From an uncultured Methanoregulaceae archaeon (GTDB lineage: Archaea > Halobacteriota > Methanomicrobia > Methanomicrobiales > Methanospirillaceae): a stretch of DNA of 64,000 bases. The translations under genes were made by a program, and so were the position numbers. Location of the stretch: positions 1,536,001 through 1,600,000 of the forward strand of contig OY970343.1 of assembly GCA_963717525.1 (NCBI GenBank), read 5' to 3'. Below are positions 25,408 through 39,768 of this stretch, one piece after another. The first letter of the stretch is position 1. Each line of letters opens with the position of its first letter. The notes beneath the pieces were generated by a model. That model saw only the letters and a list, made by a program, of their open reading frames with translations, did no database searches and had not been told where the DNA came from.

Positions 25408-26841
25408 TCATTCTTTGCCAAAGAACGTCCGCATGAACGGGTACATCTCCATGATCTGCTGGCTGGCGATCTCCTCGTACAGCCGGTACGTGATACTCAC
25501 GGTCAGTAACAACCCCGTACCGCTTACCGCACCGATGACACCAAAGAGGTTCGCGACAACACTGAGGATACCGATGAACACCCCGCCGATGATCGTGACA
25601 CGGGGGATGTACCGGTCGAGATACTTCTCCAGTACCTGCGGATTTCTCCGGTACCCGGGGATAGACATGCCGGACATCTGGATCTGCCGTGCGACATCCT
25701 TGGAATCGAGACCTGCGGTCTTGATCCAGAAGAGCGCGAAGATTGCGCCGCCGACCACCATGAAGGTGGTATCGATGCCCATCCGGAGGAGGACTTCCCA
25801 GGGCGCGTGCCCGAGACCGTACGCCCACCACATCCAGTCGGTGGGACCGTTGATAGGCGCAAGATAGTACATCAGGCCGGACTGGGGCGTTTGGCCGCTG
25901 AATTTCCCGAGAATGGTGATGCCGACGTTCGAGAGGAACATCCCCACCATCTGGATATTGGCCTGGAGCACCCTCACAAGGATCATCGGAAGGACGCTGG
26001 CATAGATCAGTTTAACCGGGAACCGGGCCCGGGCACCCCTCACCTGTGCATGGGCAAGGGGGATCTCGATGCGGGTGGATTCCACGTACACGATGATCAG
26101 GAAGATGATGATGGTTGTCGCGAAGGCCAGAAGATTCGTACCGAAATACTGGACGAAATTCGCACCGTCAAGCACAACCGCGAACAGGCGCGGGAAGAAC
26201 CCGACCGGGTAGGGGTCGCTGACTGCAGTCCAGTTGATGAACCCGTTGACAAGCGCCTGGGAGATACCGGCGATGATGAAGAGTCCGACACCGGAACCGA
26301 TACCCCACTTGGTGACCACTTCATCCATCAAAAAGACAAGGACGCCACCGATACAGATCTGGATAAAGATCAACAGCGAGACTGCAAAGAGATTGCCGCC
26401 GAAGAACTGTGCCGCGATGGTGGGATCGGGCTGCATGAACCCCCCGATAAGGTTGGGGGCGGCCTCGATCACGATCATGACGAGAATGAGGATCTTTTGG
26501 AGACCCATGTACATGACCTGTCCGCGGGCTTCGCTGGTGTCGATATGCAGGATATCGGCACCTTTCAGGAGCTGGAGGACGATGGACGCGGTAACAATCG
26601 GCCCGATGCCGAGGTGTACGATAGAACCGCTTGCACCGGCGAGCAGGGCACGCCAGGCCATGAAAACATCCTGCGAACTGGATGCAAGCCCGAACAGCGG
26701 GATATTCGTGAGCGCAAAATACAGGATTAAGATTCCCAGTGTCCACATCAGTTTGTTCTTGAAGTGGACATGCCCCTCCGGGCTCTTGACTGCGGGCATC
26801 GCAGCAAGAAGGGGTTCCATTCGATCCAGCAGGTCTCCCAT
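25408..26841 (-). CDS. secY: Preprotein translocase subunit SecY
   Basis: LGIGPIVTASIVLQLL, KWGIGSGVGLFI, GTGLLLTV. Confidence 0.98.
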   Translation of the reverse strand: MGDLLDRMEPLLAAMPAVKSPEGHVHFKNKLMWTLGILILYFALTNIPLFGLASSSQDVFMAWRALLAGASGSIVHLGIGPIVTASIVLQLLKGADILHIDTSEARGQVMYMGLQKILILVMIVIEAAPNLIGGFMQPDPTIAAQFFGGNLFAVSLLIFIQICIGGVLVFLMDEVVTKWGIGSGVGLFIIAGISQALVNGFINWTAVSDPYPVGFFPRLFAVVLDGANFVQYFGTNLLAFATTIIIFLIIVYVESTRIEIPLAHAQVRGARARFPVKLIYASVLPMILVRVLQANIQMVGMFLSNVGITILGKFSGQTPQSGLMYYLAPINGPTDWMWWAYGLGHAPWEVLLRMGIDTTFMVVGGAIFALFWIKTAGLDSKDVARQIQMSGMSIPGYRRNPQVLEKYLDRYIPRVTIIGGVFIGILSVVANLFGVIGAVSGTGLLLTVSITYRLYEEIASQQIMEMYPFMRTFFGKE

Positions 26842-28904: not shown

Positions 28905-29358
28905 TTACTTCATCCTCCCGGCAATGATCTCCATCTGTGCTTTCATGTGCGCGACACTCCGGAACTGCCCGCCGGCTGCCTTGCGGTAGAGAACCCGGTA
29001 CAGGTGCCGGTCAATGGTAGCCTGCCTCACGGAGCGCAACGAGCGCCTTCCGGATTGCACGGATTTTCTGGATCCATGCCCGTTTACTAGGGGTCCGTGC
29101 GCCAAGGGCGCCTTTCCGTTTCCCGACACCTTTGCGGTGACCGTATGCCCGCTGCGCGGTGCGCACACGAGCCCGGCCACGGCTTACGCCTTTCTTCTGG
29201 TGGGCCTTGATCGCACCGTCGGTAATAAGACCGCGCAGGTCCTCACGGGAGATAGCGTTCTCGATGTCAGAGATACGCTCGGGATCGAACCAGACGCGGT
29301 TGACACCGCATTTTAAGATCGCTGCGGCGATGCGCTTCTGGCTGGCGACATCACTCAT
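28905..29358 (-). CDS. rpl19e: 50S ribosomal protein eL19; 1-nt insertion near 29020
   Basis: [16 protein letters not shown] joins [18 protein letters not shown] after the frameshift. Confidence 0.95.
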
Positions 29359-30103
29359 TCTTCTTCACCCCGGTTGAGGGTTTTTTCTTTGGTGTGGCTT
29401 TCTCTGCCTTGGATTTCTCCGCAGCGGCAGCCGGCTTCTTTTCAGCCTTTGCCGAAGCAGATTTCCTGGTAGGGGCCTTTGCCGCTTCCTTTGCCTTTGG
29501 CTTTGCGGCCTTTTCTTCCTTCTTTTCGGTTTCCTTTGTCGCTGGCTTGGACCTGGAGGCGGCGGCTTTCACCGGCTTTTTCCCCTCAGCGCCTTTCTTT
29601 TTAGCACCTTCTGCCTTTGAAGCGCTCTTCTTTGCCGGTGCCTTTTTTGCGGCCTCCTTTGTGTCCTTCTTCGCCTTTGCCGCTTTCTTTACCGGCTCGG
29701 CAGGAGTCTCTTCTGCGACGCGTTCCTTGATCACACGGGCGTTAAGGATCTTGAAGCCTGACGCTGCAGCATTCTCCTGGAGGGCCTTGCGCTTGCGTGC
29801 CCCGACGCCGGCTGATATCCGGATCGCCTGGGTCTTCACGTCAAGGTTTTCGAGATCTTTTTCCGTGAATACCAGCACTTCAAAGAACCCGCTGGGGTGC
29901 ATGCCGCGCACCGCAACCGGGCTGCCAAAGCCGGGCTTGGGGAGGTTTCCCTTTGCCTTCTTCTGCTCCCGCTGTTTGTTGTGCTGTCCGCGGGGCTTTC
30001 TCCATGAATCGGAGAGCTGTTTCTTCTTGCCAAACCCGTCGCGCTTGAAGACGGCACCCTTCTCTGTGCGCACACGGATCAGTCGCTTGGTTTCAGTTGT
30101 CAT
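29351..30103 (-). CDS. rpl32e: 50S ribosomal protein eL32 with long Lys/Ala-rich C-terminal extension
   Basis: SWRKPRG..NK, RGMHPSG core followed by about 125 aa of low-complexity tail. Confidence 0.95.
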   Translation of the reverse strand: MTTETKRLIRVRTEKGAVFKRDGFGKKKQLSDSWRKPRGQHNKQREQKKAKGNLPKPGFGSPVAVRGMHPSGFFEVLVFTEKDLENLDVKTQAIRISAGVGARKRKALQENAAASGFKILNARVIKERVAEETPAEPVKKAAKAKKDTKEAAKKAPAKKSASKAEGAKKKGAEGKKPVKAAASRSKPATKETEKKEEKAAKPKAKEAAKAPTRKSASAKAEKKPAAAAEKSKAEKATPKKKPSTGVKKNE

Positions 30104-37347: not shown

Positions 37348-38361
37348 TCACCCCTGCTTGCTCTGGACGCTCACAAACTGGATCGCGGGCGAGCGAATAA
37401 CATGTTCTCCCTGGCGGATTGCCGGGCGGATACGGATAAGGCGTTTTGCCGGGCCCGGGATGGACCCCTTGATAACAACGTACGCGTTCCTGAGAACACC
37501 GTAGTTAAGGAATCCCCCTGCCGGTGTGATCTCCGCACCGTTCTCACCGATCTTTAAAATGCGCTTGTTGAACTCGGTGCGCTGCTGGTAGCCCATCTGG
37601 CCGCTCTGCGGGACTTGCCACCGCACATGGTGGGGGTTCCATGGCCCGAGCGTACCAACGTGACGCTCTTTCCCACCGACAGCGTGTTTCCTCTTTCGGA
37701 GAGCGATTCCCCAGCGCTTGACCGGTCCCCGCGTACCTTTACCGATGGTGATTGCAGTAATATCGGCATACGCACCGGTCTCGATCACATTGTTGAGCCG
37801 GATCTCTTTTCCGAGCACCCCTAGGGCAAACTCGTACTGCTTTGCAACATCCCCGCCGGCGATCTTGATCTCCATGATATCGGGTACCTTCTTTGGCACA
37901 CCGGTCATGGTTGCCGGCTGTGTGTACGCAACCGCGTAGATCTCTGCCACCAGGTTTGCGGCAAGGGCGTCTGCACATTTCTTCTTTGCCGCTGTACTGT
38001 CATAGTTCTTGGGCACGGTGACCCTGCGGGAGAGCTGGCTGTCCATCGGTTCTGCCCAGATCTCCGTGAACGCATGTCTGCCGTAGGTGTCCTGCGAATA
38101 TGCCCGGATGGCTGCAACTTTCATGGTCGGGATCTCTATGATCGTTACCGGGACCATAATCTCCTTGCCTTCTGTCGGGCTGTCTTTGTGGTCATCGACC
38201 ATGAGAACATGCGTCATCCCCACTTTATAACCGGCAAAGCCAAGCAACGCGGGTGCACCGGTGTGCTCTGGCCATGACTTGTATTTGGGTATGGGGCTCT
38301 GTGCACGTTTTCGTGGGCTGAATGCCAGTGAGCCTCGGCGTGGTCTGTTTATCTTTGGCAT
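37348..38361 (-). CDS. rpl3: 50S ribosomal protein uL3
   Basis: [35 protein letters not shown]. Confidence 0.97.
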
Positions 38362-38379
38362 GTGTCAATCAATCCTTTT

Positions 38380-38895
38380 CATTCGTGTTTTTTTGGTTTT
38401 TTAATGGACACGAACTCTTGAGATGAATCCGAGACTGGAGTGATATCACTTGCCTGTCCGGTAAGCCAACACGCGATCCGGCACCATCGAACAGGGCCCG
38501 GATACTACCCGCATTTCGCGAATAGTATCTGTTCCGCCCTTTGTACCGGTTGCCCCGGAAACCGGGCAGCGTGGATAAAGATATCCCGCCACCCGGTGAA
38601 TTTCCGGTGTTTCTTTTTCTCGCGAAAGAAGACCCTGACATTGACGTATCTCCTGATTTTTTTATCAGGAGAACAGGCTCGTTATGAGAAACGTCCACCT
38701 GTACGTCACGGTCAGATCCAACTCTGTCAGCCCGTTGTGACGAATCACAACTCCTTCTCGGGATCCTCCGCATGGATGCGGAGGTCACCAATCGGGGAAA
38801 TACCCACGGCAGCATCATGCCCTGTGTCAATTCTGGCCTGATTCCGCCGGTGCCGTACCTTCTTTGCAGGAAGGCAGGGCAGGGATACCCCCATA
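38380..38895 (-). ncRNA. Putative long structured 5' leader or ncRNA upstream of rpl3
   Basis: Many hairpins with UUCG and GNRA loops and G-U pairs that work only on the minus strand; TATA-like elements at about 38904-38933. Confidence 0.55.
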
Positions 38896-39015
38896 TCGGC
38901 TTCCTTAAATATTGATTAAAAGGGCATATATATGTATGCCAGTGTTCCGGGGAACCAATCGTCCCGCAACAGCCTGGCGTTCATGAGGACTCACCCGTAC
39001 ACAAACACCGTGCAT

Positions 39016-39420
39016 CTATCCGAAATAGATCTCCCCTTCATCAGTGATATAGATCTGCACATCCTCGCAGATACACCGGGCCTTGTATGACTGGGGGCGC
39101 GCTTCCCTGAGACGGTTGATAAGAGAGATTGTATCGTATTTCACCTTGATCTTGGCTTTTTCAGCCTCAGCGAAGATCATGCCCGGGACCTCAAACAGAT
39201 CGGTTCCGGACGGGATTGTGCAGAGATGCGTGGCATCAAGAGTATACAAAAATTCAAGCGTCTCTTTTGCCCGCCGGATATTTTCCATTGCAGACTTTTC
39301 AATCGTGCAGACATTGGCTTTTGAGGTGCTGATGATGTCCGCGATCTGCTGCTGGGTCATTCCCTGTTTCCGGTACCGGAGTACTTCCATCTGCCTGTCG
39401 GTGAGAAGACCATCTTTCAT
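39016..39420 (-). CDS. Tfx family DNA-binding protein
   Basis: LTDRQMEVLRYRKQGMTQQQIADIISTSKANVCTIEKSAMENIRRAKETL. Confidence 0.9.
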   Translation of the reverse strand: MKDGLLTDRQMEVLRYRKQGMTQQQIADIISTSKANVCTIEKSAMENIRRAKETLEFLYTLDATHLCTIPSGTDLFEVPGMIFAEAEKAKIKVKYDTISLINRLREARPQSYKARCICEDVQIYITDEGEIYFG

Positions 39421-39768
39421 AACTATCCATTCCATTCCGGGAACTTAAACACTTTTCGTTAACATAGTACCCGCTGCGAAGATCAATCGGGACCTCATTT
39501 GTAATTATAACTTGAAAATATACCTCGAAAATTGTTATTTCACCGGGAAGCTCCCGGCTTTGAACAGGAGAAATCAACAATGAAGAGAAGAAGGCACCCT
39601 TTTTTTGCCCTGGATTTTCCGGCCTGGACCAAGGTTAAAGGAGGGGGCCAAATGTTGCAGGTGCAATAAACAAAGAAACCGCTTATCCGGGGTAAAAAGT
39701 GATTTCAAAATCTTTATAAGAACACCGGGTCATAATGTGCTATAAAACAAAATAGAGGTGAAATTTCA

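Follow-up and report, generated by a model that had tools for sequence, protein, structure and literature searches.

A conserved structured RNA heading the archaeal rpl3-secY operon extends candidate family RF03135 and is very probably a relic of a methyltransferase gene

The predicted 5' leader of the rpl3 operon of an uncultured Methanoregulaceae archaeon (order Methanomicrobiales) is a real, conserved RNA that extends the known candidate family RF03135. We located it in a window of 64,000 nucleotides (contig OY970343.1, positions 1,536,001 to 1,600,000), where it occupies the minus strand. The conserved fold exceeds the Rfam model: it takes in hairpins on either flank, one of the GNRA type, a helix at the 5' end and, in all likelihood, a long-range helix; leader parts beyond the 85-position model fall outside RF03135. 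DNA-level comparisons with intact genes lead us, with high confidence, to regard the class of RF03135 copies outside genes as decayed PF02598 methyltransferase genes. The RNA was probably kept to control the rpl3-secY operon in cis, judging from its persistence and position. The core and its overlap with the methyltransferase gene are already published. The relic origin, the repeated loss and the extended fold were not found in the literature searched; the figures and supplementary files 2-4 of PMC7247131 may hold further stems.

The leader and its Rfam core

The leader lies between rpl3 and tfx, which precedes rpl3 at 26 of 30 loci, and occurs once in the host genome (Table 1). Downstream, rpl3 is followed by rpl4, rpl23, rpl2 and onward to secY. 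The gene names given in a preliminary description of this DNA were borne out (uL3, Tfx and uL4, and also uL23, uL2 and SecY). The ribosomal run also contains a minus-strand ORF (29351-30103, 250 aa) whose second half is a long Lys/Ala/Glu-rich tail and whose front resembles eL32. Leader length is 521-574 nt in 28 leaders from the genus and its sister genus, and about 390-680 nt in other families.

In 46 loci, a TATA-like box is located 27-29 nt ahead of a conserved start block, and intact methyltransferase genes are preceded by the same arrangement. TATA-like boxes had been proposed at about 38904-38933. Of these, only the one at 38933-38926 stands; the stretch near 38904 is the predicted start region. 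A sigma-70 promoter scan, whose model is ill-suited to archaea, found nothing.

The central claim of the preliminary description, a conserved, non-coding, structured RNA heading the rpl3 operon, holds throughout the order. All the helices it named were found on the minus strand where it had placed them: 38751-38734, 38784-38765, 38672-38649 (nested within both outer stems), 38529-38501 (which includes two G-U pairs), the GNRA hairpin near 38620 (at 38626-38618) and the hairpin close to the rpl3 start (38414-38382). The sequence and length of the 38501-38529 hairpin differ among relatives. The dense structure is also real: the predicted folding energy of the 574 nt is -232.9 kcal/mol, whereas 100 dinucleotide shuffles gave -178.3 +/- 6.3 (z -8.7); the plus strand of the same 574 nt folds at z -5.8. 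By segment, folding is strongest in the Rfam part (z -6.2), at 38540-38612 (-4.8) and at 38730-38790 (-3.2), and weaker in the 5' domain (-1.8), at 38470-38545 (-1.8) and in the last 110 nt (-1.1). Control segments gave -1.7 (rpl3 coding) and 0.0 (tfx).

The label "undescribed" did not survive, because the core matches RF03135 (L4-Archaeoglobi), a published borderline candidate for an L4 leader according to the text of PMC7247131; an Rfam search had been set beforehand as a possible refutation, and a known family does match. The match covers the full model (positions 1-85) at 55.8 bits and E 4.9e-10, with a gathering cut-off of 34.5 bits, and lies upstream of rplC, rplD, rplW and rplB, as members of the family do. 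It alone passes its Rfam cut-off within the leader. No riboswitch family reaches its Rfam cut-off there, and the reported absence of RNase P and SRP RNA signatures agrees with the lack of any Rfam match to either in the leader. RF03135 is above cut-off in 24 of 30 rpl3 loci, two of the misses being truncated contigs, and in 79 of 151 genomes examined from the order. In a structure-fitted alignment, helices 4-8 of the three-way junction are 85-100% paired, and helices 5, 7 and 8 show two-sided changes.

We gave next to no credence to a real 153-aa protein encoded by ORF 38369-38830, whose conservation as a protein would, according to the preliminary description, have spoken against the RNA. The ORF is open in the ancestral frame and carries a faint methyltransferase trace (best E 0.08-0.4). 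However, it has no Pfam match, the same frame is broken by 3-11 stops in every one of the 28 leaders but this one, the closest included, and only 4 of the 28 contain any ORF that reaches 100 codons. The ORF is not conserved.

Table 1 Features of the rpl3 operon head and of related loci. Pair counts are from an alignment fitted to the proposed structure.
Feature	Location	Strand	Remarks
secY	25408-26841		end of the ~13-kb ribosomal run from rpl3
rpl3 (uL3)	37348..38361	-	first gene of the ~13-kb run to secY
Predicted 5' leader of rpl3 operon, 543 nt	38362..38904	-	very probably relic of PF02598 methyltransferase gene and its 5' UTR
Shine-Dalgarno-like site of rpl3	38368..38376	-	kept across order; partly complementary to host 16S 3' end
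Last hairpin before ribosome-binding site	38382..38414	-	both strands kept in genus
Two conserved 3' blocks	38429..38475	-	38434-38429 complementary to 38761-38756
Long variable hairpin P8	38478..38549	-	folds in most genus leaders; little sequence kept
Hairpin region P6/P7	38555..38607	-	P6: 7/7 pairs with two-sided change
GNRA-tetraloop hairpin	38618..38626	-	just 3' of Rfam model
Rfam RF03135 L4-Archaeoglobi three-way junction	38635..38715	-	very probably former codons Gly-Ser-Asp to Val-Arg
Hairpin P3	38734..38751	-	outside Rfam model; order-specific; 96% of cells paired; 5/7 pairs with two-sided change
Conserved junction	38752..38761	-	very probably former Arg-Glu-Gly codons; 5' strand of candidate long-range helix
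Hairpin P2	38762..38789	-	outside Rfam model; 7/7 upper pairs change on both sides; 79% of cells paired
5' domain, helix P1 enclosing two hairpins	38787..38904	-	5' end pairs with 38805-38787
TATA-like box of predicted archaeal promoter	38926..38933	-	kept in 17/17 aligned genus leaders
tfx	39016..39435	-	upstream neighbor of leader
Full-length broken methyltransferase gene with core kept	L134, L135, L136, L146 (G208, G236, G226, G190)		~750 nt before rpl3

Conserved fold beyond the Rfam model

A 237-position model was built from 37 cores. It finds all 70 order loci supplied to it, of which 37 are its training rows and many were chosen for their Rfam match, and 34 of 36 intact genes of other orders. 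The predicted pairs are kept in 87.8% of cells, compared with 72.4% after shuffling and 33-48% after sliding, counted on an alignment fitted to the proposed structure. P2, P3 and P6, all beyond the Rfam model, show two-sided changes. A tree-aware test on 67 of the 70 rows placed predicted pairs in 10 of the top 13 positions, of which only three reach E<=0.03; a P6 pair heads the list, and the P6/P7 region is rearranged in the host subgroup. Covariation analysis of 62 cores aligned with plain MAFFT gave no pair with E under 0.5.

The 5' helix P1 has a duplex z of -4.2 in the host leader, and of -3.6, -3.9, -2.1 and -1.6 in four intact genes where its strands are ~330 nt apart. Its outer six pairs form in 28 of 28 leaders and are almost invariant; at one inner position, 13 leaders have A-U and 9 have G-C. 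P1 was not found in family f3 or at loci L027, L128 and L129.

In intact genes across the phylum, the Ser codon that forms the GNRA hairpin is identical in 35 of 36, and 33 of 36 retain the GNRA pattern in the codon that follows. The two-pair stem is weak (72% paired; 64% in other orders). In the same 36 genes, and with no structure-fitted alignment involved, third-position identity exceeds expectation by 0.28 in the core and 0.11 elsewhere (p 0.003, calculated over sites and genomes that are non-independent). At one locus (L112, genome G025), the GNRA hairpin unit occurs in about five tandem repeats just 3' of the Rfam motif.

A long-range helix between 38761-38756 and 38434-38429 is likely. 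The 3' block is present in 45 of 46 loci that have the 5' motif and in 3 of 16 that lack it, with a chance probability of 0.23 for the block; the corresponding figures from a less strict count by script were 41 of 45 and 3 of 13. Eight loci were checked later: the block was present in all six that carry the motif, and the two loci that lack the block had no motif at the junction either. Lineages differ in the adjacent pair, which is either A-U or U-A. The duplex energy averages z -0.6 relative to shuffles, with 8 of 62 below -1.5. As this energy does not beat shuffles, the helix rests on co-occurrence, and because the loci are also non-independent kin, we rate it as likely only.

Origin in a methyltransferase gene and its repeated loss

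Several comparisons connect the leader to the PF02598 gene. Loci L021 and L022 have an intact PF02598 ORF directly before rpl3, and this ORF contains the motif together with its flanks. Of 65 non-coding leaders, 60 match a DNA profile built from three intact genes at E<0.001; in the host leader, the match spans about 38819-38618 with E 5e-16. The promoter and the first 20-25 transcribed bases are common to leaders and intact genes. The 3' part of the leader aligns to the gene end at L122 (z 5.2), L104 (z 4.9) and L107 (z 3.6), and the second 3' block aligns to Ser-Glu codons near the gene end at L104, L107, L122 and L009. The host leader's own 3' part gave no significant alignment to the gene end, and a profile of the last 110 nt of the genus leaders found no match in intact gene 3' ends (best in place, E 1.1). 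No intact PF02598 ORF is present at the leader, and PF02598 was not found elsewhere in the host genome, which is 87% complete.

From the sequence evidence we hold, with high confidence, that the ancestral operon opened with a SPOUT methyltransferase gene (PF02598/COG2106) ahead of rpl3-rpl4-rpl23-rpl2, and that the structured RNA resided within this coding sequence. On this reading, the frame decayed several times independently, with ~400 nt deleted in the host lineage, while the promoter, the 5' helix, the RNA core and some 3' blocks were spared. The relic is now the predicted 543-nt leader.

The distribution of the gene and the RNA fits such a history. PF02598 occurs in 80 of 151 genomes of the phylum and in 4 of 151 genomes of the order, and the 237-position model found the RNA in 23 of 24 other genomes of the order, drawn evenly. 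The order's intact methyltransferase proteins fall into a single clade, a grouping that speaks against re-import from another order. A uL3 tree nests one intact lineage among lineages that lost the gene, and a single clade of losses is rejected (AU p 0.012, from 33 rows, many partial, and one marker, with the loss group fixed after the first tree was seen). In two genomes of family f10 (G196 and G205), PF02598 is in two pieces, for which early decay or assembly errors are possible.

In another order, genus g49 appears to be caught midway through an independent decay. Four of its genomes have the RNA without the gene, and the gene of a congener (G231) is intact. The four leaders align along the whole G231 gene and contain no open stretch of more than 94 codons. 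Identity to G231 is 0.81-0.82 in core windows and 0.26-0.53 in the first third of the gene, with a shuffled mean of 0.44. In the last third it reaches 0.82, about equal to the core, which may reflect recent loss and not selection. These broken-gene loci also have an extra conserved block of ~90 nt between the gene end and rpl3. We interpret repeated loss, with one genus caught midway, as a natural experiment: it is the RNA that selection preserves, not the protein. A prediction that follows is that the m3U mark at the peptidyl-transferase center is missing from most members of the order. The archaeal PF02598/COG2106 enzyme is described in PMC2584109 as the predicted 23S m3U2584 methyltransferase, and PMC11641110 reports that the animal homologue Ptch/SPOUT1 makes m3U in 28S rRNA.

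Neither gene nor RNA was found in the 37 genomes searched from families f7 (18 genomes) and f15 (19), suggesting that the element is dispensable in some lineages. In a genome of f7 (G193, locus L144), a TATA-like box ~700 nt before rpl3 is followed by a stretch with no ORF of more than 77 codons and no model match, possibly another leader or an older relic. At L147 and L148, rpl3 apparently follows directly after a TATA-like box.

Proposed function and comparison with known systems

In most of the order the RNA has survived the loss of the methyltransferase, which is therefore not the partner it has today. Its continued place at the operon head, nearly always as a single copy, points to action in cis. 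In the four metatranscriptome sets examined of 23 listed, contigs mostly from relatives less than 95% identical cover the core. Some extend from the leader into rpl3, and the end of one, at 38891, lies close to the predicted start; the contigs carry no strand, start or level. They leave a gap at 38536-38606, which is uninformative.

We lean towards a gene relic kept as a leader whose core is bound by a ribosomal protein of the operon, lowering downstream expression. Here, the compact core (three-way junction and GNRA loop) would bind excess protein; bacterial precedent favors uL4 as the putative binder, and the alternatives are uL3 and uL2. Once bound, the leader would reduce expression of the genes downstream, plausibly via the long-range helix that brings the core near the rpl3 start or via premature termination. 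PMC10931766 describes uL4 binding to the long structured S10 leader of Escherichia coli, and uL1 autoregulation as known in archaea. A ribosomal-protein leader, as initially suggested, thus remains the best guess, although the gene-relic origin had been missed. The accompanying suggestion of an rRNA-mimicking leader was not borne out at the sequence level: in local alignments of five cores with the host 23S and 16S rRNA, none scored above shuffles. Such mimicry is common in ribosomal-protein leaders, though they do not require it. An anti-Shine-Dalgarno helix was also set aside, being good in a few genus members and no better than shuffles across the order.

Other functions were weighed against binding by a ribosomal protein. 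A cis-acting RNA that stabilizes the long message or aids the polymerase over the 13-kb operon is rather improbable. Such a role would fit a 5' end held in a helix in both coding and non-coding forms, the lack of rRNA likeness and of an anti-Shine-Dalgarno switch, and a core 270-500 nt away from the rpl3 start. However, the phylum-wide invariant unpaired bases and the fixed GNRA codon suggest a specific partner or tertiary fold, and mere stabilizing hairpins require neither invariant loops nor a fixed codon. An RNA cut from the operon transcript, or terminated off it, and acting in trans is quite unlikely. The multi-helix core of ~200 nt is kept across families and long-range pairings could close a compact fold, but nearly every genome with a match has one copy, beside rpl3 in the loci examined; a bacterial-type scan found no terminator-like site at the 3' end, and contigs bridge the leader and rpl3.

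It is very unlikely that the RNA was a feedback site or substrate decoy of the methyltransferase itself and is now a slowly decaying vestige. Its residence within the methyltransferase gene in most of the phylum would suit this, as would a by-eye resemblance of the GNRA hairpin to the 23S stretch past the predicted methylation site (U2584; site from PMC2584109). That likeness was dropped as no better than shuffles, and is lost outside the order. Moreover, the gene is missing from 147 of 151 order genomes, but the fold persists with two-sided changes even as the remainder of the gene has eroded to background. We doubt still more that the RNA senses a small ligand, for instance SAM or Mg2+, in the manner of a riboswitch. 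The multi-junction fold, the invariant loops and the putative origin inside the gene of a SAM-using enzyme are compatible with such a sensor, but riboswitch models stay below cut-off, the downstream genes are ribosomal and not metabolic, and no expression platform was found. As a broader proposal, the whole leader could be one folded RNA of 400-600 nt that grew in a working coding gene, its 5' helix and long-range helix already bridging coding sequence, was freed by repeated loss in two orders and controls the superoperon or acts in trans, unlike known ribosomal-protein leaders; we hold this to be unlikely.

These findings bear on the control of the largest archaeal ribosomal operon, for which no tested mechanism was found in the literature searched. 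The analysis supplies construct boundaries for experiments, for which the 85-nt model is probably too short. Compared with the E. coli S10 leader, the host leader has no Rfam match to the S10 family and lacks an intrinsic terminator hairpin; it is similarly a long structured leader of an operon with rplC-rplD-rplW-rplB (as described in PMC10931766). With the PF02598/COG2106 SPOUT methyltransferase gene it shares position, promoter and ~200 colinear central bases of DNA, but it has no intact frame and is ~400 nt shorter than the intact locus.

The closest known system is RF03135. Its authors rated it borderline and assigned L4 by precedent alone (Eckert and Weinberg 2020, PMC7247131). The text of that paper counts 254 copies within PF02598 genes (54%) and 215 outside (46%), and its authors show the two groups to be homologous, with covariation in each. 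According to its supplement, the outside copies neither overlap nor adjoin the methyltransferase gene; two Haloferax start-site rows there concern other motifs. The relic reading, a count of losses, P1-P3, the GNRA hairpin, P6 and the long-range helix were not found in the passages of PMC7247131 searched. The host leader differs from the Rfam family in that the model spans 81 of its 543 nt, and resembles it in a full-length match ahead of rpl3-rpl4-rpl23-rpl2, which places it in the 46% class outside PF02598. We suggest that the motif is half inside and half outside the gene because the gene fell away around it.
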